Part shown: in pieces, positions 621 through 41,397 of the stretch | How positions within the stretch are numbered: the stretch's first letter is position 1 | Layout: every line of letters begins with the position of its first letter | Origin: Phycisphaerales bacterium | Lineage (GTDB): Bacteria > Planctomycetota > Phycisphaerae > Phycisphaerales > SM1A02 | DNA: 44,520 bases | Direction of reading: 5' to 3' | NCBI GenBank assembly: GCA_040401635.1 | Contig: JBBAOD010000003.1 | Location: 1 to 44,520, forward strand | Notes under the pieces: model-generated | Seen by the model: the letters and a program-made list of their open reading frames with translations, nothing else | Database searches by the model: none | Told to the model about the DNA's origin: nothing | Made by a program: the position numbers and the translations under genes

Positions 621-1255
621 ATCGCCGCCGAAATGCACGTGGATTCACGCTGTTGGAAGCGCTGATTGCTGTGGGCATGCTGATGTTGCTGCTCGGTGCG
701 CTGGCGATGTTTGTTGAGGATCTCACCCGTACTCGGCAATTCTCGGCGCGCACGGCAGCGCAGACTCGGTCAGCGGATGCCCTGTACAGCGTGCTTGAGG
801 CAGCATTGCAAACAGCAGTTGTTGATGGCGGTCCGCTGGGTTCGGGAGTCACTGGAACAGATCGGTCAGTGCGGGTTCTTTCGTCGCGGACCGATGCGGG
901 CAGCGGCAGCGTGCGCGAACTGGCGCGGGCCGCGTTTGCTGCGCTATCTGCAACAGAGATCGGTGAGTCGTCTGGAAACATCACCATCACTCGCGGCGGA
1001 TCTTCCAGCGTGCTTCCTGCCACGGTGCGCGCCATGCGCGTGCGCTACTGGACACAGGGTGGATGGGCGGATTCGTTCGACTCACTCTCCGCGGGTTCGC
1101 TGCCGCATGCAGTTGAAGTGGCGCTGTGGTTTGGAGTGGCGGCCGCTCAATCGGAGGAAGAGAACTTTGGAACGCCGGATCGGGTTCGAACGATCGCGGT
1201 TCCTGATGCAGCGGGCGCTGATGGCGCGAACTTCATACCGGAGGCTGGGCAGTGA
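617..1255 (+). CDS. Prepilin-type N-terminal cleavage/methylation domain protein, GspJ-like pseudopilin
   Basis: MNRRRNARG/FTLLEALIAVGMLMLLLGALAMF is a classic G-FTLLE prepilin peptidase motif with Glu+5. ATGA overlap at 617-620 and GTGA overlap at 1252-1255. Confidence 0.8.
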   Translation: MNRRRNARGFTLLEALIAVGMLMLLLGALAMFVEDLTRTRQFSARTAAQTRSADALYSVLEAALQTAVVDGGPLGSGVTGTDRSVRVLSSRTDAGSGSVRELARAAFAALSATEIGESSGNITITRGGSSSVLPATVRAMRVRYWTQGGWADSFDSLSAGSLPHAVEVALWFGVAAAQSEEENFGTPDRVRTIAVPDAAGADGANFIPEAGQ

Positions 1256-23113: not shown

Positions 23114-24643
23114 GTGGATACGATGCGGCCAATGCATTCGGACCCCTCGATGCGACCTGCCACCACTCGCTCCACTGTGATTGCCCGCATTGCGGCCGTT
23201 ACTGCCGTCATCGCGGTTGCCTTTGCCGCCGCTTCGGGCGCGGAGGCGATGCAGTCGCCACCCGCCGTTGCGACCCCAGCCCCGACACAGGCGCCGGTCA
23301 CTGCCACGGCAGCGCTTCCGCGCATTCTGGTCTTCAGCCGCACCGCCGGTTTCCGGCACGCTTCCATTCCTGATGGCATTCGCGCAGTGACGGAACTTGG
23401 GGCGGGGCGTTGGACCGTGGATGCAACCGAAGACTCGTCCGTATTTACTGCCGCCAATTTAAAGAACTATCGCGCGGTTGTGTTCCTGTCCACCACTGGC
23501 GATGTGCTTGACGACGCGCAACAGAAGGCGTTTGAGCAGTACATCCACGCCGGTGGCGCGTGGGTTGGAGTGCACGCCGCATCGGATACCGAATACGACT
23601 GGCCGTGGTACGGCCGATTGGCGGGTGCGTGGTTTGTCGGACATCCAGCCGTCAATCAAGAGGCGACCGTCGTTGTTGAGGATCGGACGCATCCCAGTAC
23701 CCGCATGTTGCCCGCGGAGTGGAAGCGACTGGACGAGTGGTACGCATTCCGAACAAATCCACGCAGCACTGTGCATGTCTTGGCATCGCTTGATGAGAAG
23801 AGTTACAACCCAGGCAAGGCATCCATGGGTGGCGATCATCCAATCATGTGGTACCAAGACTTTGAGGGCGGGCGCGCTTGGTACACGGCCGGCGGGCACA
23901 CCAAGGAGAGTTACACCGAACCGCTCTTTCGGCAGCATCTGCGCGAGGGCATCGCATGGGCAGCAGGCATTGCGGATGCCAAGGCAGTTCCTGTTGCGGC
24001 GCCTGCCAAGGCTGGGGATGCAAAGGCTGGGGACGCAAAGGCTGGGAATGCCACGGCACCTGTGCCGGCTCCCAAGCCAGCCGCACAACTCATGCAGTCA
24101 ACGCGCGCACACAGCGTGCTTGCGGACGCCTCACCCATGCTGGCAGCGATTCCCACATGGCTTGCATTGGGCGGCGCATTCTTGGTGGCAGCGATCATCT
24201 TGGGCGCAAGCGGCCAGGGCGTCAAGGGTCCAGTACTGAACTGGGCATTCCCAGGGCTTGGGCACGTGGTGCTTGGACACCGCAAGCGCGGATTCTTAGC
24301 GATGGCGGCCATTCTGGGAATGTTCGGCTGCGGGCTTCTCATTGGCGGCATTGATGCCGTTGACAGTGTTGAGGACGCGCCGTGGTTCATTGCCCAAAGT
24401 GGCAACGGACCGATCGCCCTCGCCGCGGACTGGGCGAATCAGAACATTCTGAAGACCGGCAAGGTTGGGGAACTCTTGCCCGCGCCAGCGCCGCTTGATC
24501 CGCTGGGCCGCCCGCTGCCAGGTCAGCACACGGTGTCATCGTTTAAAAGCTTGGGTTCGGCCAATGAATTTGGAACGCTGTTCATTGCGCTTGGCGGCTT
24601 GATGAATTTCATTCTGATCATGGACATCAGTCGCCGCGATTGA
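23114..24643 (+). CDS. Secreted ThuA-domain protein fused to an AKAGD repeat linker and a C-terminal membrane domain
   Basis: Signal peptide ending AASGAEA. ThuA-like core LPRILVFSRTAGFRHASIPDGI...VFLSTTGDVL...GGAWVGVHAASDT...GDHPIMWYQDFEGGRAWYTAGGH. Three AKAGD copies at 24005-24049. TM segments with the PGLGHVVLGHRKRGF motif. GTG start; alternative ATG at 23123. Confidence 0.8.
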   Translation: MDTMRPMHSDPSMRPATTRSTVIARIAAVTAVIAVAFAAASGAEAMQSPPAVATPAPTQAPVTATAALPRILVFSRTAGFRHASIPDGIRAVTELGAGRWTVDATEDSSVFTAANLKNYRAVVFLSTTGDVLDDAQQKAFEQYIHAGGAWVGVHAASDTEYDWPWYGRLAGAWFVGHPAVNQEATVVVEDRTHPSTRMLPAEWKRLDEWYAFRTNPRSTVHVLASLDEKSYNPGKASMGGDHPIMWYQDFEGGRAWYTAGGHTKESYTEPLFRQHLREGIAWAAGIADAKAVPVAAPAKAGDAKAGDAKAGNATAPVPAPKPAAQLMQSTRAHSVLADASPMLAAIPTWLALGGAFLVAAIILGASGQGVKGPVLNWAFPGLGHVVLGHRKRGFLAMAAILGMFGCGLLIGGIDAVDSVEDAPWFIAQSGNGPIALAADWANQNILKTGKVGELLPAPAPLDPLGRPLPGQHTVSSFKSLGSANEFGTLFIALGGLMNFILIMDISRRD

Positions 24644-27561: not shown

Positions 27562-28677
27562 TTATGGAGTGATAGTGACGCGGCGGTAGAAGCCGTTGTT
27601 TTCTTGTGCAATCGCTTGCAGTGATTGCACATCGTTTTCGCTCGCGAACGCAATGGTGTTAATTTTTGTCAATAAACCCTTGTTTCCGGCGGCAATTTCA
27701 TCGCGGAGCATGCCGATGTCACTGCTGTCAAATTCACCGTCGGTCAACAGAAAGATCGCTTCTGGGTTCATTTGGAGTGCCATGCGCATGGAGTCCCATG
27801 TGCCACTTCCGCCCGCTGGGTCTGATTCATGTTGGGTGACCCAGCGAATCGCTGAATCACGATTCGCTGCAGTGGCAGCTAACCACTCGCCATTGGGCGG
27901 CATCGGTAGCGCATTGGTGTAGACCGTTCCCGACTTGTTTGGGCTTTCAACAAGTTTGGCCCCATTCGCGGGCGATACCCCGAACAGAATCACCGTGAAT
28001 TTGCAACCATCGCGGAGCGATTGAATGCTCTTGGCAAGTTCGGATTTGAGTAGTTTCTCGCGGCCATCTTCATTGCGCATGCTTGACGAGAAGTCCAAGA
28101 TGTAGACGATGCTCTTGGCATCAGTCGGAATCCCCATGAACTGTGTTCCGCCGCCCCCGCCTGCACCCGCACGACCTGCGCCGTCCTTGCCATCCTTGCG
28201 ACCAACAGCAGTCGCGGTCTGCGGAGGATCGATTGGATCATTGATATTCGGCAAAGTGAAGCCGAATTTCGGTAGTTCCTTGCTGTCACCACTCACCAAC
28301 GACTCGCCTTCGACGGCATTTGCAGTGGCGAGTGTGCCGGTGCGTTGACCGCGCGGTGCAGAGTCGGCGGTATCACCAACGGCACCATGGAGATTCCCGG
28401 AGGTACCGGCGCCTGGGCCGTCACCGGCAAGCGCACTGCCGCTGCCGACGCCCGCGCCGAAGCCGCTCCCTGAGCCTGTTCCGTAGCCGCCGCCAGCTGT
28501 TCCCGCAGCATCATCTCCGGGCGGATCGACCGGCGCTGCAAACAGAATTGCCGCGATCACCACACCAAGCGCCAGCACAAAGCAGCTAGCGATGGCAGCG
28601 ATCGCAGAGTTACGCTCGCGGCGGTCGCACGATGCGCCGGGGTGTGTTTGCCAGGGAAGCCAAGAGAGGAGTGACAT
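27562..28677 (-). CDS. Membrane-anchored periplasmic von Willebrand factor A (vWA) domain protein
   Basis: Short cytoplasmic N-terminus (CDRRERNS), TM AIAAIASCFVLALGVVIAAILFAA, Gly-rich linker, PKFGFTLP motif. The vWA domain has a MIDAS motif (VYILDFSSSM ... GTWDS ... IFLLTDGEFD). Confidence 0.85.
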   Translation of the reverse strand: MSLLSWLPWQTHPGASCDRRERNSAIAAIASCFVLALGVVIAAILFAAPVDPPGDDAAGTAGGGYGTGSGSGFGAGVGSGSALAGDGPGAGTSGNLHGAVGDTADSAPRGQRTGTLATANAVEGESLVSGDSKELPKFGFTLPNINDPIDPPQTATAVGRKDGKDGAGRAGAGGGGGTQFMGIPTDAKSIVYILDFSSSMRNEDGREKLLKSELAKSIQSLRDGCKFTVILFGVSPANGAKLVESPNKSGTVYTNALPMPPNGEWLAATAANRDSAIRWVTQHESDPAGGSGTWDSMRMALQMNPEAIFLLTDGEFDSSDIGMLRDEIAAGNKGLLTKINTIAFASENDVQSLQAIAQENNGFYRRVTITP

Positions 28678-28725
28678 GAAGTTCGTTGCTCTTGAGTGCT
28701 TGGAAGTAGGTATTGCTACAAGGAG

Positions 28726-29859
28726 TTACTTGATTTCAGTACGCATCGGCGGGGAACGATCGACCCGGATGATGAAGACTCGGGTGTTGGAAACGCGCAT
28801 CAGACCTCGCATGATCTTCATGAGTTCAGGTTGCTTTTCCTCTGCATCGGTAACGATGAATTCGATGTTCGGGCGCTTCTCGGTTCCGTGCTGCCGCTTC
28901 TTCATGTTGGCAATGACGAGTTGGTAGCCCGTTTCTGGAGAGTCTCCACCGCCATATGGCTCGACATCTAATACCTGCTGCACCATCCGCTGAATGTCTG
29001 TTGACTTCTTGGTCTTTAAGGTTGGTTTGATGATCACCTCGTTTGGCTCCCCCAAGAGGACATCACGAAAGGAAGTGACGGTGATCGAGCCGCCCTGCAA
29101 ACTATTGAAAATCTCAGCAATCACGCGGGCTACCGCGTCACGGGCGGGTGCCATGCTGCCAGTCGCGTCAAGATTGATACTGATTCGCGAGTCGGGCCAT
29201 GCTTGAACTACGTCGATGATCTGACCCTCGGTGGATCCTCCGCCGGCTGCTCCCGAACCGCCGCGCGTTGGGCGCCCGGTTGGCACACCGGGTGCTGCCA
29301 CACTGGGCGGTTTCGGCATGATCATCGGTGGTGGAGGTGGGGCATCAGGCTGCGTGAAGCCAAATTTCGGTGGTTCGATTTCTGGTCCGGCCGGCGCGAG
29401 TGCTACGGACTCTCCTTCTTCGGAATCACCTTCGGCCGCAGCCCCATCGGGGCTTCCGAGTGGCGGGGCTATTTCATCCGGACCGGCAGCGAGTTTTCCG
29501 CGCGTGCGGTCGTCTACCCCGGCTCCTGGGCCAGATCCATCAACACCGCTCCCAGTTCCACTGCCATTCCCGATACCTGCCCCGTCGCTGCGCCCGAGTC
29601 CGCCTCCTGATCCGCCACCACCGTATCCGCCACGGCTTCCAGCGAAGATCGCCGCTAGCACGACGCACAAACCCAACACAAAGGCGGCCACGATTCCAAG
29701 AATCGCGGACGCTCGCTCGCGTGGTTCGCACAGGGCTTCGTCCTCACCCGGTGTGTCGGAGTTCTCAGAATGAATCGCCACGGAATCAGCGTACGCCATG
29801 AACCCCCGAAGCCCAATGCCCCGTATTTCTCCTGCGGGTACCTTTTGACTTTGGACCAT
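28726..29859 (-). CDS. Membrane-anchored periplasmic vWA-like protein, paralogue of the downstream gene
   Basis: Same layout as the neighbour: CEPRERAS, TM AILGIVAAFVLGLCVVLAAIFAG, Gly-rich linker, PKFGFTQP motif. The vWA-like domain reads ISINLDATGSM ... YGGGDSPE ... EFIVTDAEE. An alternative start at 29799 (MAYAD) is possible. Confidence 0.75.
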   Translation of the reverse strand: MVQSQKVPAGEIRGIGLRGFMAYADSVAIHSENSDTPGEDEALCEPRERASAILGIVAAFVLGLCVVLAAIFAGSRGGYGGGGSGGGLGRSDGAGIGNGSGTGSGVDGSGPGAGVDDRTRGKLAAGPDEIAPPLGSPDGAAAEGDSEEGESVALAPAGPEIEPPKFGFTQPDAPPPPPMIMPKPPSVAAPGVPTGRPTRGGSGAAGGGSTEGQIIDVVQAWPDSRISINLDATGSMAPARDAVARVIAEIFNSLQGGSITVTSFRDVLLGEPNEVIIKPTLKTKKSTDIQRMVQQVLDVEPYGGGDSPETGYQLVIANMKKRQHGTEKRPNIEFIVTDAEEKQPELMKIMRGLMRVSNTRVFIIRVDRSPPMRTEIK

Positions 29860-29924: not shown

Positions 29925-31259
29925 TTGAAGGACACCACCGTGAGTAGGAAACTCAAATCCAGCGCCGTTTGCCCCCACTGCTGGCACCGATTCCGTCCGG
30001 ATCAAACGCTCTGGGTCGCTGCGCATCCTGAGTTGCTCGGCGATCGATTGCTCACGCCTGAAGATCCGGTGCGTTTCCTGCCGTCGCGCTTCACGCCAGC
30101 GGGCGAGGCGATCGACCCGTCTGGTTCCAAGACGCGCCGACTTGCATGCCCCAACTGTCACTTGGAGATTCCGCAACTGGTACTTGAGTGCCCGATGGTG
30201 ATCATGAGTTTGGCTGGCAGTCCATCAAGCGGTAAGAGCTATTTCTTGGCGAGCGCTATGTGGAAATTGCGCGAGGAACTCGCACGGCATTTCTCCGTAG
30301 CGTTTACGGACACGGATCCCGCGATGAACCGTGCAATCACCAACAACGAAGGTCAGCTCTTTCTCAACGAAGATCAGTCCGCGTCGGTTGCCATTGACAA
30401 GACGGAAATGGAAGGAGCGCAATACAACTCGGTGCAGTTTGATCCGGGTGTCGCCACCATGCTGGCGCATCCGTTCATCTTCACCGTGCGCCCTTCGCGC
30501 GATCATGTGAACGGACATGCACCGCATCGATTGACACAGCTATTTACGCTCTATGACAATGCTGGCGAGCACTTCTTTCCTGGCGCCGATACCGCGCGCG
30601 CGCCTGGAACGCAGCATCTAGCGAAGGCGCAGGTTCTGATGTTTGTCTTTGATCCGACGCAGGATGTTCGCTTTCGCCAGCGTCTTGCTGGTCTCAGCGG
30701 CGACCCACAATTGGCTCCGGGTGCAAAGACCACGCGCCAAGATCAATTGATTGTGGAAATGGCGCGCCGTGTGCGCATCCACGCAGGTCTTGCACCGCAG
30801 GATCGGGTTCCCAAGCCGCTGTTTGTCATTCTCTCCAAGAGCGACATTTGGGCCCCACTTCTGAAGGAAGAAGATGGAACACCAATGGACATCACCACGC
30901 CGCCCTACGCGCGCGAACGCGCCGGTCTGGGGCGAATGAGCATCAAGCGCGTCGATCGAACCAGTGATCGCATTCGTGCGTTGCTGTGTGAAGTAGCACC
31001 GGAACTCGTGTCCGCTGCCGAAGACGCGTTCGAGCGCGTCATCTTCATTCCAGTGAGCGCGATCGGAACGTCGCCGGTCCTGGATCCAGCGAGCGGTCTC
31101 CTCAAGGTTCCGGTAGCGCGCATCGCTCCGCGGTGGGTGACCGTTCCGTTCATCTACACACTTGCGCGTTGGTCGACGCACTTGGTCTCAAGCGACAAGA
31201 GCGAAGGCGACCCATCATTCGGAACACCGTCGGATTCCGCTGACATGGATCCATCGTGA
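29925..31259 (+). CDS. Zn-ribbon-fused TRAFAC-class P-loop GTPase
   Basis: Four-Cys ribbon CPHC...(58 aa)...CPNC. G1 is LAGSPSSGKS, G3 is LYDNAGE, G4 is ILSKSD and G5 is PVSAIG. TTG start at 29925, or GTG at 29940. Confidence 0.85.
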   Translation: MKDTTVSRKLKSSAVCPHCWHRFRPDQTLWVAAHPELLGDRLLTPEDPVRFLPSRFTPAGEAIDPSGSKTRRLACPNCHLEIPQLVLECPMVIMSLAGSPSSGKSYFLASAMWKLREELARHFSVAFTDTDPAMNRAITNNEGQLFLNEDQSASVAIDKTEMEGAQYNSVQFDPGVATMLAHPFIFTVRPSRDHVNGHAPHRLTQLFTLYDNAGEHFFPGADTARAPGTQHLAKAQVLMFVFDPTQDVRFRQRLAGLSGDPQLAPGAKTTRQDQLIVEMARRVRIHAGLAPQDRVPKPLFVILSKSDIWAPLLKEEDGTPMDITTPPYARERAGLGRMSIKRVDRTSDRIRALLCEVAPELVSAAEDAFERVIFIPVSAIGTSPVLDPASGLLKVPVARIAPRWVTVPFIYTLARWSTHLVSSDKSEGDPSFGTPSDSADMDPS

Positions 31260-31313: not shown

Positions 31314-33779
31314 ATGGCACTCGAACTCATCTACACATCTGCAGTACGCGGCCTCCGGGCTGGAACCAGCGGGTTCTGCACTGTGGCGATGACCAAGGGA
31401 TTGCCGCCGGCGTTGGTGCCGCGCCTGGAAGCGCTCGGCGGATATCGCACTGGTCCGTCGGGCAATGGCCCGAATGCGTATTGCTTCTGGCGTGTTGAGA
31501 CAGCGACGGGGATTGCGCATGTGCTTTCCATTGTTGGTCCTGCACCGCCGGACCACACGGCGCGTTCCAACAAGATCGCTACGTACTTGGTGCTCGCGCC
31601 GGATGAGTTGGTGCCCGCTGGACCCGCGTGGCTTCTTTCGCAACCCGCGCTTCTGCGTAGCACATGGAGCGGTGCGCCTGCTTGGATCGATGCTCCAGTG
31701 CGCGTGCCGACAACTCGTGATACCGGCCCGCGTCCATGCGCTGCATGGCAGGCAGCGAGTGGCGATGCGGGCTGGGCGGGCGTTCTGGCAAGTGCATTCC
31801 TTCGCGATCAAGCGCGGCCGATTCATGTGATTTACGGCGCCGCCATTGAGCCGCTGCCACTTGTTGAAGAAGCAATTCGACTCTTGCCGGAGTGGGCGCG
31901 TTGGCGCGCAACGTTCTCAACGTATTTCCTCCAACCAGTTGCTGGAACCCCGTGCGCGTGGCGATTCTGTCTTGATGGAACTCCAGCTACGGATGCTGCG
32001 CGGCAGTCCAAGGGGCTGGTCATTGACCTGACGCGCACCGCGGGGCCAGCGCCCGAATCACGATTCACACGTATGGCTCGGACGGGTATTGATGAGGAGG
32101 CGGTAGCGGCGCAAAGAGCGACGCGAGCAGCCGCGCGTGCCGCGGGAGCGGCTGCTGTTACCGGTGCCAGCGCTGCGCGGTCGAGCGATGCGCCCATTGA
32201 ATTGGAAATGGACTTTGCAGGAGATCAAGCCGGTACGCCGCGGCGCTTGGTGCGGGAGTTGGAATCTGAAGATCAAGGTGCGCCATCTGGCGAGCCAGCG
32301 CGCATGTCCATCAGTCCACCCATGTTGGCACTCGCCGCGGCTGGATTGACAGTGATACTTCTGGGTTTAATTTACCTGGTTAGTTTTACGACGGGCCAAA
32401 CTGCGGCACCAGCGGCACCAGCGATCCCCGCGATACCCGCGGCACCTGCGGTTGTCGAGAAGCCCAAGCGGGAGATGGAGCCGCTGAATTTGAAAGTGGA
32501 TGCTGCCGATGTCGGTACCACTCGGTCCGACGATGTCACAGCGGAGCCCGTCTCGAATGATGATGGAGCTCCGCAGGAGGAAGTCATAGAAGAAGCCCCG
32601 GGCATGCCAACGGATCCAGAAGCGTCGGCTTCGCCGCCTGAGCGCGTGCTCCCCGCTGTATTGCCTCCGCCCGTCGTGGCCCCAGTCGCGCCTGTCCCCA
32701 CGACACCAGTCATCACGCCGCTGGTATTGCCAACGATTGCGAAGTGGTCACCCACTTCCGCGTTCGAACGCGTCGCAACAGGCGCTGTGCAATTGCGGTT
32801 ACGTTTCGACGTTGGTGCAAAAAGTGGGTGGACTGTGAACTTTGTGCCTGCAAAGTCGCTCGCCGTGGCGGGTGTCAGTGTGCAGTCAAATGGTGGAATT
32901 GAATTCAGTGGGTCAGCCATGAGTGCGCGGGCTTCCATTAATGGAGCCGACCTCGTCATCGCTGGGTCCGCCGCTGGTCCTGTTCCTGAGGCGCTTCAGT
33001 TAGCGCTCCGTGATGCGAAGGATGTAAAGGACGCCAAGCTCGATCCGGTAGTCGTGCTGCAGCGGGCGCTTGAGCGTTGCACCGTTGAGGTGTTTGACAA
33101 GGGTGGCACATCGCTTGGGTTCGCACAGGTGCGGACAAAGTCAACGAAGTCGATCGGTATCGGAATGGAAAACAGCACAGCATTGGCAGATTTCGGCAAT
33201 AGCCGGCTCGATAGGCAAGTGACATCCCCTGCCGTTCCAGAGGCAATAACAGTTCGAGTTGATCCGATGCAAATTGAGAGCATGAACATCGCGGAAAGTT
33301 TGACTCTTTCTGTCAACCGTGCTGTGCAAAAGTCAGCAACGGTGTTCAGTGCAATGGCGCCGAGCGCTTCGGTTGTTGGGTTGCACATCACGGCATTGTC
33401 GAAGCAACAAGCCGAACTGAGCGCTCTCAAGAAGTCGTGCAATGTCGTGCTCGCGGTAGCGAAAGGCGGTACTCAGTCAGGTGGCTTTGAAGCAGACCTG
33501 CAGGCCGTACAGAACGCACTACTTCCGGAAGAGCAGAAGAAATTCCTCGTCGCTGGTGGTAAATCATCGCTGATATCAGACAGCAAGACCATGCGTGACA
33601 TGGTCGAATCAATCACTCCGCGTCTCGATAGTGAATTGAATAGCGTCAGTAAAAAACTGACGGAGGCCAACGCGGCGAGTAAGGCCAAGGCGAGCCCCGC
33701 GCAGTGGCGCATTCGCGTATCAAACGAGGACGGGATTGTGCTACTCGACTCCGCCATCACACCACGGGTGAGCAAATGA
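31314..33779 (+). CDS. Bitopic protein with a cytoplasmic GAP1-like (GTPase-associated) N-domain, one TM and a large periplasmic C-domain
   Basis: N-terminus MALELIYTSAVRGLRAGTSGFCTVAMTKGLP. TM MLALAAAGLTVILLGLIYLVSF near aa 335. Pro/Ala linker, then ~400 aa with no recognisable domain. Confidence 0.75.
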   Translation: MALELIYTSAVRGLRAGTSGFCTVAMTKGLPPALVPRLEALGGYRTGPSGNGPNAYCFWRVETATGIAHVLSIVGPAPPDHTARSNKIATYLVLAPDELVPAGPAWLLSQPALLRSTWSGAPAWIDAPVRVPTTRDTGPRPCAAWQAASGDAGWAGVLASAFLRDQARPIHVIYGAAIEPLPLVEEAIRLLPEWARWRATFSTYFLQPVAGTPCAWRFCLDGTPATDAARQSKGLVIDLTRTAGPAPESRFTRMARTGIDEEAVAAQRATRAAARAAGAAAVTGASAARSSDAPIELEMDFAGDQAGTPRRLVRELESEDQGAPSGEPARMSISPPMLALAAAGLTVILLGLIYLVSFTTGQTAAPAAPAIPAIPAAPAVVEKPKREMEPLNLKVDAADVGTTRSDDVTAEPVSNDDGAPQEEVIEEAPGMPTDPEASASPPERVLPAVLPPPVVAPVAPVPTTPVITPLVLPTIAKWSPTSAFERVATGAVQLRLRFDVGAKSGWTVNFVPAKSLAVAGVSVQSNGGIEFSGSAMSARASINGADLVIAGSAAGPVPEALQLALRDAKDVKDAKLDPVVVLQRALERCTVEVFDKGGTSLGFAQVRTKSTKSIGIGMENSTALADFGNSRLDRQVTSPAVPEAITVRVDPMQIESMNIAESLTLSVNRAVQKSATVFSAMAPSASVVGLHITALSKQQAELSALKKSCNVVLAVAKGGTQSGGFEADLQAVQNALLPEEQKKFLVAGGKSSLISDSKTMRDMVESITPRLDSELNSVSKKLTEANAASKAKASPAQWRIRVSNEDGIVLLDSAITPRVSK

Positions 33780-36673
33780 ACGCAGCCAAGCAAGAAATGT
33801 TCGAAACGGTTCGCTCGGTTGTCGCTGGAAGGCTTCGGGACGAAGCGCAAATCCGCGAGCTCGCGCATCGAATCTCGGAAGAATCAACCACGTTGCGCCG
33901 CCGCCTGGATCGTGCGGTTGGTTACGCCCGCGCCGGTCTTCGATTGGAAGCATGCGCGGAGGCGGAAGCGGAGCCCTCGGTGTTTGAACTCGCCGCAGCG
34001 TTTGACTCCGATGTCATGCGGCAGTGGCGGACGCTTTGCTCCAAGAACAAGTTGCCGCTGCAAGATGAAATTGCCAGTGACGCCATCGCAGAGATTGAAG
34101 AGGCAATCGCGCTTACTGCGCCGCTTCGCAGCAGACTTGCCCGGATGCGGCGGCTGGTACTTTCTGATGCATCTGCATGGAATAAGCTTGAAATACTGCG
34201 CGAATTGGTGTCACGCGACAGCGACAATCCGGCATGGCAAGAAGATCGCGCCGCTCTTGAGCCAGTGACCGCGAATGAGCTTGGCGATCGATTTGAGGCC
34301 GCCTTGGAGAAGGGCGCTCTTGACGACGCAGAGCTTTCCGTCACGCGGCTTGAAGATGGGAACTGGCATTGGTCGGGCGCAGCAAAGGTAGCCGCGCAGT
34401 TACGTGCACGGCTTAATCGCGCACTTGCCACACGAACAGCACTCGAAGCGCGGGCTGTCATCGCACTGCTCGATGAAGAGTGGGCTGCGGAGAATGAGTC
34501 GGGGGCACAGGCGGCGCTGGAATCATGGCGCGACCTTGAGCAGCGCATGCTCTCGTACGGCAGCGAAATGCCGGGAGATCTGCTTACGCGCGTGGATGAA
34601 GCCGAGGCGTGGCTCTCTGCTCGCCAGTCAGATGCAGCGGCGCACCGCGAAAATATTGACCGGGTTGCGGCGCTGGAACGGCTCGTACATGATGACGCTG
34701 TGACACTTCCCGGATTGCGTAAGACGCTTCGATCTGCGGAGCAGACCGTGGCGGGAGTCCCGGATGATCTGCGCGCGAGCGCTGAGCGCAAGATTGATTC
34801 CTTCGAACGTGCAGCACGAATGAAACGCTTGGCCTTGATTGCGGCGGTGGTGTTGGTTCTAATTGCTGGATCAGTGGGCACCGTCTATGTCTTGCGCCAG
34901 TCGGAGGAACTGAAGCGGATCGATGACATCGCCGCTGCGATTACCAGCAATGTTGACGCCGGCCGGCTTGTGGAGGCAGATCAACAGCTTGCGGAGGCAG
35001 AGAAAGAGCCCGCCGTTGCTGGGTCGCCGACGATTGCCGCAGCACGATCAAAGCTCACAGTAGCTCGTGCCGCCATCGCAGAGAAGCATCAGAAGTTCAC
35101 AAGCCTGATGGCGGAGGCTGGCGCCCCAGATTCTGAATCCGCCAAGCCTGATCGCATTGAGGAAGCAAAGCAATTTGCTCAGGGTGAGGAAGAGCAAGCG
35201 ATGGTTGCTAGCTGGATTCGTACACACGGCAATGCAACGGGCACCCGCCGCACCGATCGCATGCGCGAGGGAATGGCCCGCGCCAAAGCCACAACACGAG
35301 AGATCACAGCGGCTCAGCCAACCGGTGACGCATCCTGGGATGGAACATTCACTGCGTGGGAAAGTGCACTTGCTGATGTTCAGCGCCAGTATGGCGAGTT
35401 TGACGAAGTGACTCAAGAAGTCCGTGCGGGTCGTGCGAGTTTGATGGCGCAGCGCACAAAGACAGACACTGCGCGAGTAGAAACTGGCCGTGTCGGCAAA
35501 CTCGGTGGCCTTGGAGGTGCCGCAACTTCGCCACAGAAACTTGTGGACGCGTTGGCGGCATACATCAACGCACACGATGATTCGGCAGAAGCCAAAGACT
35601 TTAAGGCAGCCAAGGTCGCGCTTCCGACGTGGGAGGCAGTGACTGCGTGGTCCGCGGTTCAGCCGCGCCCCTCCGTATTACTTGCAGATCGACCGCAGGC
35701 AGAACGCGATGCGGTCGCCGCAGCAATTGATACGTATGTTCACGAATATCCATCCAGTCCGTACGGGGCCGAGTGCGAAGCGCTCGCGCCACTACTTGTT
35801 GCGGCGCCCGGATGGCGTGCAGCCCTCACGGAAAAACTAGAAAGTATGGAGGAGTTGACCTACTGGATGATCGAACGCAAAGACGGCTCGCGCTGGTACT
35901 GCAAAGCTGACCCACGATCATCTCCATTGCAAACGCAGGACGGTGTGGCCTTTAAGAGCGTCATGGTCTATCAGGGCAAGTCCAAGAAGACGGCGTTCGA
36001 GCGATTTGAGCAATTGCAGTTGAAGACAGAGGGGCCATCGCCACAAACGGTGTTTGGCAAGCAGTTGGCTGAGCTTATTGCAGACGATGAAAAATCAGTA
36101 AACGACATCGATGGAGCGTTCGACGCAATGACGGCGTTGCGCGAGAATGAAACGATCGATGGAGCCTTAGCCGCGCAATTGATGCAGGGATTGCTCGAGT
36201 CAATGGCGCCGCAAATGCCCGCAGTGATCCGTCCGCAGATAGAGGCGGCAGTCAAGCGCATTGCCAAAGAGAAGCCAGATGCCATTGATTGGATCAATCC
36301 GCGCGACGCAGACGCCCGCACTCGAAGCCGAGCTGCCCGTGCGGCAATGCGTGAGGCTGTACAACCAGAACTGTGGCGTAAGGCGTACGTGTCAGCAATG
36401 GCATCGGCATGCGCTCCGCTTGCAGTGGTGTACGAGCCTGCCGGTGTCTTTGTGAAATCTGCTGGTAAAGACGTATTTCTCTCAAATAAAAGCACGGTGG
36501 CTCCGGCGAATACGACACTGTGGATCGCCGAGCCGCCGATCGGCAGCAACCTTGGCATGATGATCAAACTGGGAACAGTGAAGCAGGGCGGGGTGGTTGA
36601 GTTTGATTCAGCATCTACGACAGTGACGCCGGGCAACATGGTCTTCACCATCAAACGCGGGGGCAAACCGTGA
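33776..36673 (+). CDS. Bitopic protein with a long cytoplasmic alpha-helical/coiled-coil region, one TM and a ~570-aa periplasmic domain
   Basis: Start at MNAAKQ (ATGA overlap with the upstream stop at 33776-33779). TM LALIAAVVLVLIAGSVGTVYVL. GTGA overlap with the downstream gene. No family recognised. Confidence 0.75.
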   Translation: MNAAKQEMFETVRSVVAGRLRDEAQIRELAHRISEESTTLRRRLDRAVGYARAGLRLEACAEAEAEPSVFELAAAFDSDVMRQWRTLCSKNKLPLQDEIASDAIAEIEEAIALTAPLRSRLARMRRLVLSDASAWNKLEILRELVSRDSDNPAWQEDRAALEPVTANELGDRFEAALEKGALDDAELSVTRLEDGNWHWSGAAKVAAQLRARLNRALATRTALEARAVIALLDEEWAAENESGAQAALESWRDLEQRMLSYGSEMPGDLLTRVDEAEAWLSARQSDAAAHRENIDRVAALERLVHDDAVTLPGLRKTLRSAEQTVAGVPDDLRASAERKIDSFERAARMKRLALIAAVVLVLIAGSVGTVYVLRQSEELKRIDDIAAAITSNVDAGRLVEADQQLAEAEKEPAVAGSPTIAAARSKLTVARAAIAEKHQKFTSLMAEAGAPDSESAKPDRIEEAKQFAQGEEEQAMVASWIRTHGNATGTRRTDRMREGMARAKATTREITAAQPTGDASWDGTFTAWESALADVQRQYGEFDEVTQEVRAGRASLMAQRTKTDTARVETGRVGKLGGLGGAATSPQKLVDALAAYINAHDDSAEAKDFKAAKVALPTWEAVTAWSAVQPRPSVLLADRPQAERDAVAAAIDTYVHEYPSSPYGAECEALAPLLVAAPGWRAALTEKLESMEELTYWMIERKDGSRWYCKADPRSSPLQTQDGVAFKSVMVYQGKSKKTAFERFEQLQLKTEGPSPQTVFGKQLAELIADDEKSVNDIDGAFDAMTALRENETIDGALAAQLMQGLLESMAPQMPAVIRPQIEAAVKRIAKEKPDAIDWINPRDADARTRSRAARAAMREAVQPELWRKAYVSAMASACAPLAVVYEPAGVFVKSAGKDVFLSNKSTVAPANTTLWIAEPPIGSNLGMMIKLGTVKQGGVVEFDSASTTVTPGNMVFTIKRGGKP

Positions 36674-37815
36674 CAGACGATTCCGAGTTTGATGACTTTG
36701 ACGGCCTCGATGCGGGAGGGCCCTCCGGTGCTTCCAAGCCCGGCCACGATGACCACGGTCGCTCGGCTACGGGACCCTGGTTTGTCCGATTCGCTGGAAG
36801 GCGCACCGGACCATTCGATGTGGAACGCCTGCGCATTTTGGCACGGCGCGGCGCACTCTCTCGCGTCCACGCGCTGAGTGTCGATGGCAAAGTGTGGTCC
36901 GCAGCCACCACGGTGCGAGCAGTCTTCAATGCAGACGGGTCCGTCGTTGCGTCGGGCGTGCGCGCGGTGGAGCTCGAAGAAGACCGGCCGGATTTCGGCG
37001 ATGAACTTCCCGGCACGGCGCCGACGGAATTCCCCCAGTTCACCTCGCGACGATTCATGGGCAGCGCTTTCGTTCGCCCGGTGGTGATCTGCGCACTCAT
37101 TCTTGCGACCATCATGTTGGCCTTGCCGACGTCGCGCGACGACGCAGGCGAACTTGCATGGTGGTGGCACGAGGGTGCATTGGGTATCGCCGTCCGCGGC
37201 CTGTGTGCGTTCGCGGTTCTGGGTGGTTGGGTAGTGGCGTTCCTTCCACCAGAGCCTGCCCGCGCTGCTTCAGTGTCTGCAGTCGCAGCAGTCCTTGCCG
37301 CAGCAGGCGCGTTGGCGCTGGCCCCGTGGGCGCCTTGGGCGCTGGTGATTGCACTTCTTGTGCCAATCGCTGCGCTCCTGGTTGCGCTCGACGCTGCGGG
37401 TTCTCCCGGGATACGCCCGATGGGAATTGTTGCTGTTTCGACGGCAGTCCTGATGGGTGTGGCATGCATTACCCTCGGCGTCTTCTGGTATTCACCATGG
37501 ACGCTCGCAGGAATGATTCTTGGAACAGTTGGCGCTGGCGGACTCGGTTGGGCCGGCGTGTCTTCGATACGGCACAAGGGACCAAGTGCCAAAGGAGTCT
37601 TCTCGAGTGGAATCATCGCTGCCACCGGATCCATGGCGTGCATCTTTGCGGCAGCATTTGCTGGGTTAAACAGCACAACACCGATGGTGGGTGCGCAGGG
37701 CGCCGTTTCTGCGTGCCTGGTCCTTGCCTTCTCAGCGCTCTCTTGGGCAGCCGTGCACGAGGCGGTTGAGAGTTCACACCTCCTACGCGGAACAGAAATC
37801 AACGAAAGCGCCTGA
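36670..37815 (+). CDS. GYF_2-domain protein fused to a polytopic membrane domain
   Basis: GPWFVRFAGRRTGPFDVERLRILARRGALSRVHALSVDGKVWSAATTV matches the bacterial GYF_2 pattern. About 6-7 hydrophobic helices follow. Confidence 0.75.
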   Translation: MTDDSEFDDFDGLDAGGPSGASKPGHDDHGRSATGPWFVRFAGRRTGPFDVERLRILARRGALSRVHALSVDGKVWSAATTVRAVFNADGSVVASGVRAVELEEDRPDFGDELPGTAPTEFPQFTSRRFMGSAFVRPVVICALILATIMLALPTSRDDAGELAWWWHEGALGIAVRGLCAFAVLGGWVVAFLPPEPARAASVSAVAAVLAAAGALALAPWAPWALVIALLVPIAALLVALDAAGSPGIRPMGIVAVSTAVLMGVACITLGVFWYSPWTLAGMILGTVGAGGLGWAGVSSIRHKGPSAKGVFSSGIIAATGSMACIFAAAFAGLNSTTPMVGAQGAVSACLVLAFSALSWAAVHEAVESSHLLRGTEINESA

Positions 37816-37845: not shown

Positions 37846-38715
37846 ATGGCACAGCCAACTCAACCCGCCACAACCGTTACCACGCAACCGAAGCTCGATG
37901 CACGCGCCGGCGACATTGAATGCATGATCGGATTCTCGTCCGGCCGCTACACGGTGGCATCCGCACCGCTGTGGCTTGGTGTGGCAGCAGTCATGACCAT
38001 TCTGGTCGCACTCATCTTGGTGATTGTTGCACCCAACAGTTACTTGTTACTCATGATGAATCGTTGTTGGACCAATTGGGCGGTGGTGTTCTTTTCGTGG
38101 TGGTGCCTCGGCATTCTCTTCGCAAAGTGGATCAAGACCAGTATTCAACTGCGTGCGCTCCGCGCCGTGGACATTGTGCCGCGCCGCGGCGATTTCATCC
38201 TGAGTCCTGGTACTTCCGGCGACGTCTTGCGCCGCATCAAGGCGGTCGCGGAGCGCCCCAAGGATTTCCTGCTCTTTCGTCGAATCGATATGGCGCTGTC
38301 CAACCTTGGCAATATTGGAGAAGTGCGTGATGTTGGCGCGGTTCTTGAAAGTCAAGCGGATTCCGACGGGTCAAGCGTGGACTCGAGTTACACAGTCATT
38401 CGCTCGCTCATCTGGACCATTCCGATCCTTGGCTTCATTGGCACCGTCGTTGGTCTATCGCAGGCGATCGGTTCATTCACCGACGTTCTGACGCAGACTG
38501 GTAGTGATGCAGGCAGCATCAAGAGCAAACTCGGACCAGTCGTTGGTGGATTGGCTACTGCCTTTGAGACAACGCTTGTTGCACTCGTCGCCGCCGTCAT
38601 CATCCAGCTTCTTTCCACTTGGGTGTACAAGCGCGAAGAGGCGTTGCTCGACGGCATTACTGACTTCACCACTGAAAATGTGCTTTCGCGCCTGAAACTC
38701 ACCGATTGGCAGTGA
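37846..38715 (+). CDS. MotA/TolQ/ExbB-family proton channel subunit
   Basis: Two N-terminal plus two C-terminal TMs. Signature IWTIPILGFIGTVVGLSQAI and LGPVVGGLATAFETTLVALVAAVIIQLL. GGAG SD 8 nt upstream. Confidence 0.9.
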   Translation: MAQPTQPATTVTTQPKLDARAGDIECMIGFSSGRYTVASAPLWLGVAAVMTILVALILVIVAPNSYLLLMMNRCWTNWAVVFFSWWCLGILFAKWIKTSIQLRALRAVDIVPRRGDFILSPGTSGDVLRRIKAVAERPKDFLLFRRIDMALSNLGNIGEVRDVGAVLESQADSDGSSVDSSYTVIRSLIWTIPILGFIGTVVGLSQAIGSFTDVLTQTGSDAGSIKSKLGPVVGGLATAFETTLVALVAAVIIQLLSTWVYKREEALLDGITDFTTENVLSRLKLTDWQ

Positions 38716-38718
38716 CCC

Positions 38719-39600
38719 ATGGGACGACGCAAGAAGCGCGAAGAGGCTCCGCTGAGCCTGTTTTCCTTCCAAGACATCATGGCTTGCCTCACCGGCATCC
38801 TGATTCTGGTGGCGCTGCTCATTGCTATGGATGGACTGACGGACGAGATGGAGGCAACGCCCGGCAAGAGTGGCGCGCCGAATCCAGAGGTCGCAGCAGC
38901 GCGCGTGCCGGTACTGCGCGAACAGATTGCAATCTTGCAGCGCTCGATCGACGACCGTAAAGGCGGCCGCGATGTAACGAAGGCCGAAGTGGATCTTCTT
39001 GATTACAGCATCAAAGACAAGGCGATGTTGGTAGAGCGAGCGCGTAAGCGCCTGGCGGATGCTGATGCAGAAATGAAGCGCATCACTGAGGAGCAAGCGG
39101 CGGCAACTCAGCAGATTGAAGAACTTCGGGAGCGTATTGCTACTGCGAAGCGCTCTGCAGAGGCGCAAGTGTTGCGTGAGCGCGTGAAGTTCCGTCCAGG
39201 AATGAAGTACACAAAGGCGCCGGTATTCGTCGAACCAATGGCGACCGGAGTAGTGCTTGGCGAACTGGATGCAACTCGCACGCCAGTGCGTATTGCAGAC
39301 CTCAAAGATCCGAACGCCGATGCGCGCATTGTTGGCGCGCTCGCTAAGCGACTTCCTGATACCTCGTACATCGTGTTCGTCGTGCATGAGGATGCCATTC
39401 CGCGCTTTGAAACACTTCGTAATGCCTTGATTCGCCGTGGCTATGAGGTGGGCTGGCAATTGTGGGACGGCGCCACTGGCGGATTCCTGGATGGCGCCTC
39501 CGAATCCACGGGCCCGGTGCCGTTGACGCTGCCAGCGGTCGCCGACAAGCCGAGCGAGGCTGTGAAGTCAGGCAAGTCTCCCGCCGGAGGTGCACCATGA
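38719..39600 (+). CDS. Elongated ExbD/TolR-like stator partner with coiled-coil insert (293 aa)
   Basis: N-terminus MGRRKKREEAPLSLFSFQDIMACLTGILILVALLIAM: basic tail plus a TM with the conserved Asp. ~100-aa coiled coil. ExbD-like C-domain TSYIVFVVHEDAIPRFETLRNALIRRGYEVGWQL. Starts 3 nt after the MotA-like stop. Confidence 0.75.
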   Translation: MGRRKKREEAPLSLFSFQDIMACLTGILILVALLIAMDGLTDEMEATPGKSGAPNPEVAAARVPVLREQIAILQRSIDDRKGGRDVTKAEVDLLDYSIKDKAMLVERARKRLADADAEMKRITEEQAAATQQIEELRERIATAKRSAEAQVLRERVKFRPGMKYTKAPVFVEPMATGVVLGELDATRTPVRIADLKDPNADARIVGALAKRLPDTSYIVFVVHEDAIPRFETLRNALIRRGYEVGWQLWDGATGGFLDGASESTGPVPLTLPAVADKPSEAVKSGKSPAGGAP

Positions 39601-40415
39601 GTGCAGGCGGTCGACGTCGTCGGCGGGGCGGCCGCAAGAGTTCATCCCTTGCGGGTGATCCCTTGGATTTGTTCTTGGATGCCATTACCAATGCGCTTGG
39701 CGTCGTTATGTTCATTCTGCTGATGGTGGTGCTCTTTGGCCGGGCGAGTGATTCACAGTCAGATGCCTCGGCTCCAAGTGCAGCAGAGGTTCGCGAAGCG
39801 CGTGACCTTGAAGACCAACGCCAGCAACTGCAAGCCAAACTCGACGCACTGCCGCCCGCAGGCGACCCCGAGTTGAACGCCCGCTGGAATGCAGCCAACA
39901 AAGCGTTTCAGAAGTTAGAAGATGAATTAGTCGAACTTCTGAGCGAAGCCCAGCGCCGCGAAGCGGACGCGTCTGCCGCCGCCGCCAAACTTGCAGAGTC
40001 GCGCAAGGTGCTTGAGCCACTCACCGCGGAGGCATCGAAGAAATCAGAAAGCGCCACTCCGCCGAGTGGTTTCGTCCGTGTCAGCCGCTTCCAGCAGGAT
40101 CAGCGAAAATCGGTCATCCTGCTTCTCTCGGCAGGCAAGCTTTCGCGATTCCGCGCCACTGCAGAAACCAAGGAAATCAGTGCTCCCGCGAGCGGATTTG
40201 CGGTGACCGATGCGGTCAGTGCCGCCGAGGGCGTTAGCCGGGCGCTCGATGGGTTCCAGCCCGCCACTTACCGCGTCGAATTGCTGGTTTGGGAGGGTTC
40301 GTTCGCGCCGGGCAAGATGGTTGAGCAGGCACTCCTTGACTTGGGGTTCGATTCGAATCCCCTCCCTGTTCGTGCGGGCACGTCTGTTCAGTCCGGAACC
40401 GGCGGCGTGCAGTAG
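39597..40415 (+). CDS. Second elongated ExbD/TolR-like protein with coiled coil (272 aa)
   Basis: Start at MSAGGRRRRRGGRK (ATGA overlap at 39597-39600). DPLDLFLDAITNALGVVMFILLMVVLFG is a TM with Asp. Coiled coil, then C-domain YRVELLVWEGSFAPGKMVEQALLDLGFD. Confidence 0.7.
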   Translation: MSAGGRRRRRGGRKSSSLAGDPLDLFLDAITNALGVVMFILLMVVLFGRASDSQSDASAPSAAEVREARDLEDQRQQLQAKLDALPPAGDPELNARWNAANKAFQKLEDELVELLSEAQRREADASAAAAKLAESRKVLEPLTAEASKKSESATPPSGFVRVSRFQQDQRKSVILLLSAGKLSRFRATAETKEISAPASGFAVTDAVSAAEGVSRALDGFQPATYRVELLVWEGSFAPGKMVEQALLDLGFDSNPLPVRAGTSVQSGTGGVQ

Positions 40416-40425
40416 CGTCTGCAGC

Positions 40426-41397
40426 ATGCGCCTGTGCTCCCTTCTGTACCTTCCCTTGCTCGTCATCATGGTTGGCTGCGGCAAGCCCATTGTGGTGCAC
40501 GCCGTCACGGAGTCATCGCTCGATCCCATTGCAGACGTGCGCGTCTACCGACATCGCTTCGGGTTCTTCAATTTCTTTCCGGGCACAAAGTTTGTTCAGA
40601 CTGGACCAGACGGCCGCGCAGAAGTCAGTGTTGGTTCTGCCAATACCAATCTCACCATGCTGCGCGCCGGATTTGAGCCAGTCATCTTTGGCGTCTTTGA
40701 AACGCCATCAGTTGCTATCGCGCCGGATGTTGGCGGCTATGACCATGTGGTGATGTTCAAGGACATCAAGTCTGCCCCGAAGAACGAATACCAAGTGAAA
40801 CTGCGCCCGGTGCGTCGGGAGCCGATGCAACTCACCGTGCTCGACTCCGCAACGAACGCGCCGATCAGTGGCGCGGAAGTCTTTGGCGCAACATTCCTGT
40901 ATCTGCCACAGCCGGGCCTGGAGGCCGACTGGGGATTCCCACCACTGCAAGTTGCAAAGACTGACGCTTCCGGCAAAGTCACCATCGACCAGATTTCCGG
41001 CTTTCGCAACAGCATCACTATTCGACTTGTTGGGTACCAGAACGCCGTCATTGCCTTTGATGGACGAACAATCACTGGCCCGCGCGCCGTTGATGTTCCG
41101 TTTCGCAAATTGCAGTCCAAACAGATTGACTTCCTGGTGATTGATGCCAAGACCAAGGCGCCGGTGCAGGGCGCGGAAGTACGGCTGGGCGAATCACGCG
41201 ATGGATTGCCGCCGAACCCGAATGGTTGGACGAAAGTCGTCGGGGCGGATGGGCGCACCGGGCCGATGCCGGTGGCAGACATGTCACCGTTTCTCATCAG
41301 CGTGACCAGTAGCAACTACCAAGAGTGGCGAGGGGCGCCAGTATGGCGGGCGCTGACTGCGGGGCAGACCAAGAAGCTGGAGTTGCAGCGGAAGTAA
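40426..41397 (+). CDS. Lipoprotein with about 3 carboxypeptidase-regulatory-like (Ig/beta-sandwich) repeats
   Basis: Lipobox MRLCSLLYLPLLVIMVG/CGK. Repeated IVVHAVTESSLDPIADVRVY, LTVLDSATNAPISGAEVFG and FLVIDAKTKAPVQGAEVRLGE. Starts 10 nt after the upstream stop. Confidence 0.7.
   Translation: MRLCSLLYLPLLVIMVGCGKPIVVHAVTESSLDPIADVRVYRHRFGFFNFFPGTKFVQTGPDGRAEVSVGSANTNLTMLRAGFEPVIFGVFETPSVAIAPDVGGYDHVVMFKDIKSAPKNEYQVKLRPVRREPMQLTVLDSATNAPISGAEVFGATFLYLPQPGLEADWGFPPLQVAKTDASGKVTIDQISGFRNSITIRLVGYQNAVIAFDGRTITGPRAVDVPFRKLQSKQIDFLVIDAKTKAPVQGAEVRLGESRDGLPPNPNGWTKVVGADGRTGPMPVADMSPFLISVTSSNYQEWRGAPVWRALTAGQTKKLELQRK

Follow-up and report, generated by a model that had tools for sequence, protein, structure and literature searches.

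What does a large GTPase with a four-cysteine module at its N-terminus do at the head of a membrane operon in a planctomycete? We address this question for an open reading frame (ORF) at 29925..31259 on the plus strand of a 44,520-nucleotide stretch from a Phycisphaerales bacterium (positions 1 to 44,520 of contig JBBAOD010000003.1, GenBank assembly GCA_040401635.1), which we call the window. The ORF has a TTG start and encodes 444 amino acids (aa). An earlier reading of the same DNA, made from its letters without database searches (the sequence-only reading), had described the product as a TRAFAC-type GTPase joined to a cysteine ribbon. On the profile matches of the protein and its relatives, we assign it to the DO-GTPase2 family (PF19993), the GTPase of the GAP1-N2 'GTPase-centric system' of Kaur et al. 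We consider it probable that the protein is the nucleotide-switch subunit of such a system, a cytoplasmic TRAFAC DO-GTPase2 that has a membrane module as its output.

Motifs, fold and family of the GTPase

The motifs named in the sequence-only reading are all present in the translation: CPHC (aa 16–19), CPNC (aa 75–78), GSPSSGKS (aa 98–105), DNAGE (aa 211–215), SKSD (aa 304–307) and SAI (aa 378–380). Conservation was counted across 148 representatives of 50%-identity clusters, and all coordinates in this section lie on the plus strand. The four cysteines C16, C19, C75 and C78 are kept in 141 of the 141 sequences that have those columns occupied, and the 55-residue insert separating the two pairs is itself conserved (RFLPSRF and other segments); the module as a whole (aa 16–79, CPHCW to CPNCH; 29970..30161) is a predicted zinc ribbon (ZnR). 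At least two additional CxxC pairs lie upstream in 12 of the 148 representatives, by a regular-expression count, and in four members of our profile alignment A1, which contains 34 homologues of the GTPase. Within the G domain, Lys104 of G1 (Walker A; 30216..30239) is kept in 146 of the 148 representatives. G3 (Walker B, DNAGEH, aa 211–216; 30555..30572) retains Asp211 and Gly214 in all 148 and its family-defining Glu215 (PMC7159879) in 146, and Ser378 of G5 (31056..31064) is found in 137. Asp243, Gln272, Arg282 and Trp404 are also near-invariant; judging from the alignment, elements peculiar to this family would lie at these positions, in the stretch from G3 to G4 and at the C-terminus. Such counts indicate that the motif set and the four cysteines are under strong constraint and did not arise by chance.

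Some parts of the earlier description need adjustment. The motif set had been called complete from G1 to G5; this holds for G1, G3, G4 and G5, whereas no G2 had been named, and we now propose Lys159-Thr160 (30399..30404), invariant in 147 of 148 representatives, as a candidate G2 or switch I element. Thr160 is the obvious candidate for the switch-I threonine, because it is invariant and because it falls within loop 160–164, the only floppy, low-confidence internal loop of our structural model. SKSD at G4 (30834..30845) had been taken as an NKxD variant. Lys305 and Asp307 are indeed kept (in 146 and 147 of 148 representatives), but the residue that precedes the lysine is not conserved (Thr in 56, Ser in 36, Asn in 17, Pro in 16 and Ala in 15), and G4 is therefore written xKxD. 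The spacing between G1 and G3 is 105 residues, which is ~65 more than in Ras, and the insert of ~90 aa previously reported there was an overestimate. The protein's size does lie well above that of Ras- and MglA-like small GTPases, as stated, with 444 aa against a G domain of ~200 aa.

Without the canonical G4 asparagine, the protein might instead be an ATPase, or a pseudo-GTPase that serves as a scaffold and hydrolyses nothing, and the variability of the first G4 position across the family is in favor of this explanation. We find it very improbable. The lysine and aspartate of G4 are nearly invariant, G1, the G2 threonine, G3 and G5 are intact and strongly constrained, and the canonical asparagine does occur in the 17 representatives counted above.

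The fold agrees with the motifs. An AlphaFold2 model built with the 34-sequence alignment A1 has a mean pLDDT of 88.7 and a pTM of 0.89. In this model, G1 follows the strand 91–98 and precedes the helix 104–123, G3 closes the strand 205–213, G4 comes after the strand 295–303 and G5 after the strand 369–376, a placement of G motifs as in Ras-like proteins. The N-terminal 90 residues have pLDDT values above 92 and form short beta-hairpins at both cysteine pairs; hairpins and cysteines together are consistent with a zinc ribbon that is interrupted by the conserved insert of 55 residues, and for which metal binding is predicted. As modeled, the G domain packs against this N-terminal, zinc-ribbon-like module. 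A Foldseek comparison with the PDB gave 136 matches at E ≤ 1e-3 (best E 5e-6), and the best 50 of the 136 are overwhelmingly GTPases or GTPase-containing complexes, including EF-Tu/eEF1A, eEFSec, GBP1, atlastin, G-alpha, Rag/Gtr and Arf/Ran/Rac. The matches have 8–15% identity and TM-scores of 0.2–0.33; by the model, the TRAFAC fold class is clear, yet no solved structure is closely related. Sequence-profile searches of the PDB with A1 and with the GAP1, ExbD-like and ORF3 alignments introduced below (A2, A3 and A4) returned only spurious matches, of the ankyrin, ATP-synthase-b or coiled-coil type. The identification as a TRAFAC-type GTPase is thus borne out by a confident model, by fold matches to TRAFAC GTPases and by G motifs in canonical order.

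PF19993 is the protein's only Pfam match. The same model matches 33 of its 34 relatives, full-length relatives at 40–45% identity pass the model's cut-off with 29.5–37.7 bits (37.7 and 37.2, for example), and many homologues already bear a precomputed PF19993 label. The DO-GTPase models, which the sequence-only reading had singled out for comparison, were the correct ones to consult. That reading had not recognized the protein as Era, Der, Obg, FeoB, dynamin or MglA, and no NCBIfam or housekeeping Pfam model matches it; an NCBIfam search with seven operon and neighboring proteins found nothing at E ≤ 0.01. There is no Ras-family Pfam match to the GTPase, and Rac, Ran and Arl structures share only 10–12% identity with it.

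The family was predicted via comparative genomics by Kaur, Burroughs, Iyer and Aravind (eLife 2020, PMC7159879). They define DO-GTPases as a TRAFAC GTPase family with a conserved Walker B glutamate and a GAP1 gene that is downstream or fused. One or two N-terminal zinc ribbons occur in 60% of its members, two being the usual number in GAP1-N2 systems, and 38% of systems have two paralogous GTPase genes. GAP1-N2 systems occur in planctomycetes among other phyla, their GAP1-N2 proteins are often fused to C-terminal transmembrane (TM) segments, and their third component is a protein with rapidly evolving FNIII repeats; in some planctomycete systems, a linked GYF protein carries a trypsin or a TM-rich region as its fusion partner (PMC7159879). 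Because the family has been described, most of the novelty implied by the earlier reading is gone, and the GTPase taken alone is already explained.

The operon and its relatives

The GTPase gene was said to open an operon, and it does. Its upstream neighbor is divergent and 65 bp away, and seven same-strand genes follow, separated by gaps of -4 to +54 bp, with ATGA or GTGA overlaps at three junctions. Together they form an eight-gene membrane operon that contains a MotA/ExbB proton-channel module. The GTPase's P-loop and CxxC pairs are the only ones in the operon, and the window has no paralogue of the GTPase, a second such gene being optional in the family definition. The operon has the same GC content as the remainder of the window, and a promoter and terminator scan found fewer sites than in shuffled sequences. 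Translation of the GTPase probably starts at the GTG at 29940, giving 439 aa, since GAAGGA, which resembles a Shine-Dalgarno sequence, lies 7 nt upstream at 29927–29932, and since a homologue of 97% identity has this same length; with this start, all GTPase residue numbers fall by five.

The second gene (31314..33779, +) encodes an 821-aa GAP1 protein with Pfam matches to GAP1-N2 (1.3e-16) and GAP1-M (2.3e-14). These cytoplasmic parts are followed by one predicted TM segment at aa ~337–359, a Pro-rich linker and a ~350-aa periplasmic C-terminal region, in which Pfam identified no known domain; no GAP1-C was found in the protein. Three of its arginines, Arg84, Arg196 and Arg256, are invariant. 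An AlphaFold2 model of aa 1–270 (31314–32123, +) has a pLDDT of 92.4, and its best match to a solved structure is TagF, the post-translational repressor of type VI secretion systems (T6SS) that binds Fha; the match has a Foldseek probability of 0.99, an E-value of 3e-3 and 19–20% identity over ~105 columns. The resemblance extends to the surroundings: among relatives of the GTPase, FHA and Ser/Thr-kinase domains occur as fusions or in neighboring genes, and such domains are partners of TagF-type regulation (TagF/PpkA/PppA/Fha), a likeness that suits the TagF-like fold, and vWA proteins are encoded nearby. However, the window has no T6SS genes, TagF systems work without a GTPase, the Foldseek E-value is only 3e-3, and no sequence-profile link between GAP1 and TagF was found, as the search of the PDB with the GAP1 alignment A2 gave only spurious matches. 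For want of that link, we keep the TagF-like fold of the model as a lead and make no claim of membership. A role for GAP1 as a longin-type platform for guanine-nucleotide exchange or GTPase activation was considered and dropped, as literature searches lent no support to a view of TagF as DENN/longin-like.

The third core component, ORF3 (33776..36673, +), overlaps GAP1 by an ATGA and encodes 965 aa from the ATG at 33776. A ~350-aa helical cytoplasmic part is joined by one predicted TM segment to a ~590-aa periplasmic part. Its homologues are 950–1020 aa long in 42 loci, a remarkably constant length despite 17–30% identity in distant relatives, and a short form of ~377 aa is present in ten loci, seven of them labeled Planctomycetaceae or Fuerstiella. 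The periplasmic protein diverges quickly, with 21–30% identity compared with 41–50% for the GTPase. ORF3 has no Pfam domain, and a profile search of the PDB (alignment A4) gave only spurious matches. Even with the threshold relaxed to E ≤ 5, no fn3 match was detected in ORF3, in the C-terminal half of GAP1 or in the rest of the operon's proteins, and 32 homologues of ORF3 likewise gave none; the one place where fn3 turned up was a fusion in the distant relative P0266. These searches suggest that the FNIII component general to GAP1-N2 systems, not detected in this lineage, is replaced here by an unannotated third core protein of ~970 aa.

The remaining genes would supply the membrane module. 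A GTGA overlap leads to a 381-aa protein (36670..37815, +) with a GYF_2 match at aa 37–65 (E=0.007) and then ~6–7 hydrophobic segments, here called GYF-TM. Next comes a 289-aa MotA/ExbB/TolQ-family proton-channel protein (37846..38715, +; PF01618 at 2.1e-9, 37.6 bits against a cut-off of 22.9). Two paralogous ExbD/TolR-like candidates follow, of 293 aa (38719..39600, +) and 272 aa (39597..40415, +), the second beginning in an ATGA overlap. Each has a basic N-terminus, a single TM segment with an invariant Asp19 and Gly26 (alignment A3), a coiled coil and a C-terminal alpha/beta domain, and their position and topology are those of ExbD, TolR and MotB partners. With hhalign, Asp19 falls on the aspartate of 'TPFIDVML' in Escherichia coli ExbD, and the C-terminal domain aligns to the periplasmic domain of E. 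coli TolR, both alignments being weak (probability ~2%, E ~0.02). The last gene, ahead of a convergent asd-like gene, encodes a putative lipoprotein (323 aa, MRLCSLLYLPLLVIMVGCG, 40426..41397, +) with a CarboxypepD_reg-like beta-sandwich; its membership of the system is uncertain, because only one other locus has a homologue. On the opposite strand, upstream of the GTPase (27562–29859), lie the genes for two paralogous proteins with a TM segment, a Gly/Pro-rich stretch and a vWA domain, of 377 aa (28726..29859, -; VWA_4 4.4e-9) and 371 aa (27562..28677, -; VWA_3 6.8e-9).

The family is large. Of the candidates scored, 1,699 qualified as homologues at E ≤ 1e-3, and a search with the A1 profile matched 2,641 clusters at 50% identity among 1.84 billion representatives, 630 of them at E ≤ 1e-30. 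At least 593 loci appear in a one-genome-per-species scan. Among the loci listed, nearly all are from Planctomycetota (Phycisphaerae, Tepidisphaerales, Pirellulales, Planctomycetales, Isosphaeraceae) and a few from Lentisphaeria, and the closest is a Lac Pavin Planctomycetota metagenome-assembled genome (MAG) with 99% identity. Gene content was then compared by tblastn over the 44 of 85 loci with at least 9.5 kb of downstream sequence. A GAP1 homologue immediately follows the GTPase in 44 of 44, ORF3 has a homologue in 39, GYF-TM in 29, the MotA/ExbB protein in 25, and the first and second ExbD-like proteins in 18 and 14. Where the GTPase is at least 47% identical, MotA/ExbB is found in 13 of 14 loci, most of which have the remaining set too. 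A divergent vWA gene lies upstream in 14 of 58 loci, mainly in closer relatives. It is exceedingly improbable that the protein is a diverged housekeeping GTPase of the Era, Der, Obg, EngB, FeoB or translation-factor type that sits beside membrane genes by chance: its best structural matches do include EF-Tu/eEF1A G domains and one relative has a weak MMR_HSR1 match (E=0.003), but the lack of any NCBIfam match leads us to reject the idea, as do the absence of a housekeeping Pfam match, the low fold matches (10–13% identity, TM-scores 0.2–0.33), the strict GAP1 linkage and a distribution that, among the loci listed, is essentially confined to Planctomycetota and Lentisphaeria.

Distant loci exchange accessories. 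L003 has FHA and kinase genes upstream and a ParA-like gene downstream. In L001 (5247–9588), from a 5.8-Mb planctomycete genome, GYF-trypsin and GYF genes replace the stator, and integrase and resolvase/recombinase genes are directly adjacent, which hints that mobile islands carry some of the copies. The order of MotA/ExbB followed by two paralogous TM-Asp proteins recurs at L004, L017, L018, L021, L024, L025, L029 and others. Elsewhere, the ZnR-GTPase core is fused to GAP1 (P0230), Ser/Thr kinases, FHA, FHA-GYF, GYF, a STAND-like ATPase (AAA_35/TPR, P0337), fn3 (P0266) or FGE-sulfatase (P0244); further fusion proteins are P0235, P0297, P0275, P0241, P0281, P0307, P0239, P0260, P0259 and P0261. 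The FHA and kinase fusions point to phospho-threonine signaling inputs.

In relatives, the context is stable. DapB, ThuA, a Na/H exchanger and XylA are upstream of the operon in four of them, and the XylA adjacency is kept where the GTPase is only 46–50% identical. Identities of GTPase and XylA in relatives (89/90, 80/78, 77/74 and 50/58%) suggest nearly equal rates of divergence for the two proteins, within a chromosomal context that appears stable. L023 was considered as a potential close relative carrying other accessories and was dropped, as it looks like a frameshift-ridden contig. The operon is also present, at up to 98% identity, under unexpected taxon labels at L007, L010, L013, L015, L023 and L085 (Chitinophaga pinensis, uncultured Chitinophaga, Phycisphaera mikurensis NBRC 102666, Nitrospinota and Ectothiorhodospiraceae MAGs); these are probably mislabels or binning errors.

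Set against the published DO-GTPase2/GAP1-N2 systems (Pfam PF19993, PF20013 and PF20014), the operon shares the TRAFAC GTPase with its Walker B glutamate and N-terminal ZnR, a GAP1 (N2, M and a TM segment) immediately downstream, nearby vWA genes and a membrane-proximal organization. The planctomycete association of GYF with TM-rich or trypsin regions is also seen, in GYF-TM here and in the GYF-trypsin and GYF proteins of L001. The operon differs from those systems in its single GTPase gene, in a GAP1 without a detected GAP1-C, in a conserved bitopic ~970-aa protein as third core component, and in the MotA/ExbB and two ExbD-like genes, which are linked in 25 of 44 loci. Neither MotA, ExbB nor TolQ is mentioned in the main text and one supplement of PMC7159879, and that supplement does not mention GYF or planctomycetes. 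The MotA/ExbB link, the ~970-aa third protein, the TagF-like GAP1, the domain fusions and the stable context are new details, the first of them as judged from that text and supplement.

Several observations weigh against our assignment and the mechanism built on it. Against PF19993, the GTPase itself reaches 25.1 bits (E=1.6e-5) where the cut-off is 27, and only aa 204–308 are aligned. It has one ZnR where two are usual, and the FNIII-repeat protein of the published systems was not detected. The ExbD/TolR candidates lack statistical support for their assignment, with no Pfam ExbD match and nothing except coiled-coil noise from a profile search of the PDB with alignment A3. Finally, a literature search on the DO-GTPase and GAP1 names found no biochemical or genetic study; besides PMC7159879, the only mention of DO-GTPase was in passing, in a preprint on PSP envelope stress.

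Two further observations concern the rest of the window. In a giant secretin of 3,256 aa (5945–15715, +), ~25 Secretin_N domains in tandem (E 5.5e-271) precede a single Secretin domain, and three same-strand ORFs before this gene (1252–3351, 3358–4845 and 4842–5948) have no Pfam match. At 23114–24643 (+), a 509-aa ORF joins a ThuA (trehalose utilization) domain to DUF6677.

A proposed cycle and its possible purpose

How might such a switch operate? The GTPase would bind GTP, as its intact motifs suggest. The G4 aspartate reads the guanine base in other GTPases, and from the invariant aspartate of xKxD we infer guanine specificity. The protein probably pairs with itself by way of its G domain. 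Pairing of G domains is implied by the 'double-GTPase' concept, the family name reflecting paralogous pairs, and the operon has a single copy where two paralogues are present in related systems. GBP1 and atlastin, large GTPases that dimerize in a nucleotide-dependent manner, are also among the best fold matches, although they share only 10–11% identity with the protein, which lacks both a helical stalk and a middle domain, as well as any Pfam match of that kind. In its GTP state, the GTPase would dock at the inner membrane, on the N2/M module that GAP1 has in the cytoplasm. Water for GTP hydrolysis, and so for resetting the switch, would be activated by Glu215, His216 or both, which we take to occupy the positions of Ras Gln61 and EF-Tu His84. 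Since GAP1 and ORF3 each cross the membrane once and have a large periplasmic part, the pair may link a signal from the periplasm or the envelope to the cycle of the GTPase. The likely outputs are the GYF protein with its multiple TM segments and the MotA/ExbB channel with its two ExbD-like partners, a membrane module driven by the proton motive force (PMF).

The earlier note had called the zinc ribbon the GTPase-docking module of some motility switches, which is imprecise. In Myxococcus GltJ, a ZnR-linker-GYF membrane protein on which MglA-GTP acts, the ZnR binds the linker and MglB, and it is the linker that MglA-GTP binds (Attia et al., Sci Adv 2024, PMC11135422). In our model the ZnR is tightly packed and carries an invariant insert, making it a candidate docking surface; self-regulation or docking to a membrane partner, as had been suggested for it, would be plausible.

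What the module is for in this lineage is a separate matter, on which the evidence for defense and for an envelope machine is roughly balanced. DO-GTPase-GAP1 systems have been classified as biological-conflict systems, in which the GTPase-GAP1 pair sets the threshold for releasing an effector (PMC7159879). It is possible, though short of probable, that the operon is an anti-invader system of this type, whose threshold-setting switch releases a membrane effector when variable periplasmic parts sense an invader. As for the effector, we can tentatively suggest GYF-TM together with the MotA/ExbB channel, acting by depolarization or by a Zorya-like response. Besides the published classification, this reading draws on the variation of accessories at deep divergence (trypsin-GYF at L001, kinase, FHA and ParA-like genes at L003, the P0244 and P0337 fusions), on the resolvase and integrase beside L001, on the fast divergence of periplasmic proteins seen in ORF3, and on weak ZorA matches from the MotA/ExbB protein. 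As in the Zorya anti-phage system, with its MotAB-like ZorAB stator, a MotA/ExbB-family protein and a single-pass, Asp-bearing partner are encoded here, in an operon for which defense has been predicted.

There is also evidence against a defense role. PADLOC gave only weak generic matches to ZorA and to LmuB (coiled-coil), so that no known defense system can be assigned, and its models match none of the GTPase, GAP1, ORF3 or GYF-TM. The ZorA matches (E 8e-4 to 6e-3) are limited to the MotA/ExbB core; the long ZorA tail is missing, and there are no genes like ZorC, ZorD or ZorE. The operon contains no toxin or nuclease domain. Its gene set is constant in 13 of the 14 loci with at least 47% GTPase identity, its housekeeping neighbors are the same in relatives, its divergence rate is like that of XylA, and its GC content does not set it apart from the rest of the window.

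A GTPase-gated, PMF-powered machine that spans the envelope and serves adhesion, surface movement, transport or envelope maintenance is the other reading, which we rate about as likely as the first, possible though short of probable. The parts would suit it: a ZnR, a GYF domain with TM segments, a MotA/ExbB protein, two single-pass paralogues with an invariant TM aspartate, periplasm-spanning coiled coils, a lipoprotein and vWA proteins. Stable synteny, a housekeeping-like evolutionary rate and a constant gene set within the clade also speak for it. GYF-ZnR-GTPase fusions exist, and they may be part of the ZnR-GYF set of Attia et al.; such modules are widespread in planctomycetes and the PVC (Planctomycetes, Verrucomicrobia and Chlamydiae) group without a link to MglA, and have been proposed as general switches (PMC11135422). 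The Myxococcus xanthus Agl-Glt focal-adhesion motor, with one TolQ-like and two TolR-like proteins (AglRQS, PMC11135422), offers a comparison: at the inner membrane, each system combines a GTPase switch, a ZnR and a membrane protein bearing a cytoplasmic GYF domain with a single TolQ/MotA-family channel and two single-pass partners.

The two systems also differ. The GTPase here belongs to another family than MglA and is roughly double its size, its ZnR is on the GTPase instead of the GYF protein (the GYF-ZnR-GTPase fusions notwithstanding), and no homologues of MglB, AglZ or GltA-K were seen, nor did Pfam find a Roadblock gene in the operon. The homology of the single-pass proteins to ExbD/TolR is unproven, and MotA/ExbB is absent from 19 of 44 loci, where other accessories are found instead. 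The likeness is a functional analogy only, one between domain sets. The probability not assigned to these two readings was given to outcomes that we have not considered.

In its strongest form, the second reading would make the DO-GTPase2-GAP1 operon of Planctomycetota a vertically inherited, GTPase-gated and PMF-powered trans-envelope machine, and not an immune system; we rate this general proposal as doubtful. The allotment of roles within it is similarly speculative: the ZnR-GTPase and the GYF membrane protein would be the switch, MotA/ExbB and the ExbD-like proteins would provide force, and GAP1 would act as a TagF-like regulator of assembly. FHA and Ser/Thr-kinase inputs would feed into such a machine. 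If the proposal is true, the operon would be a non-homologous counterpart of the MglA-GltJ-AglRQS focal-adhesion motor of Myxococcus.

For a family of this size, all functional statements rest on prediction. The operon is a clean and complete example, with one GTPase, one GAP1 and a fixed set of partners, and it could serve as a model for the family: for how a ZnR-GTPase and GAP1 communicate, for whether the system is a defense or a machine driven by MotA/ExbB, and for how general the ZnR/GYF switch logic of Myxococcus may be.

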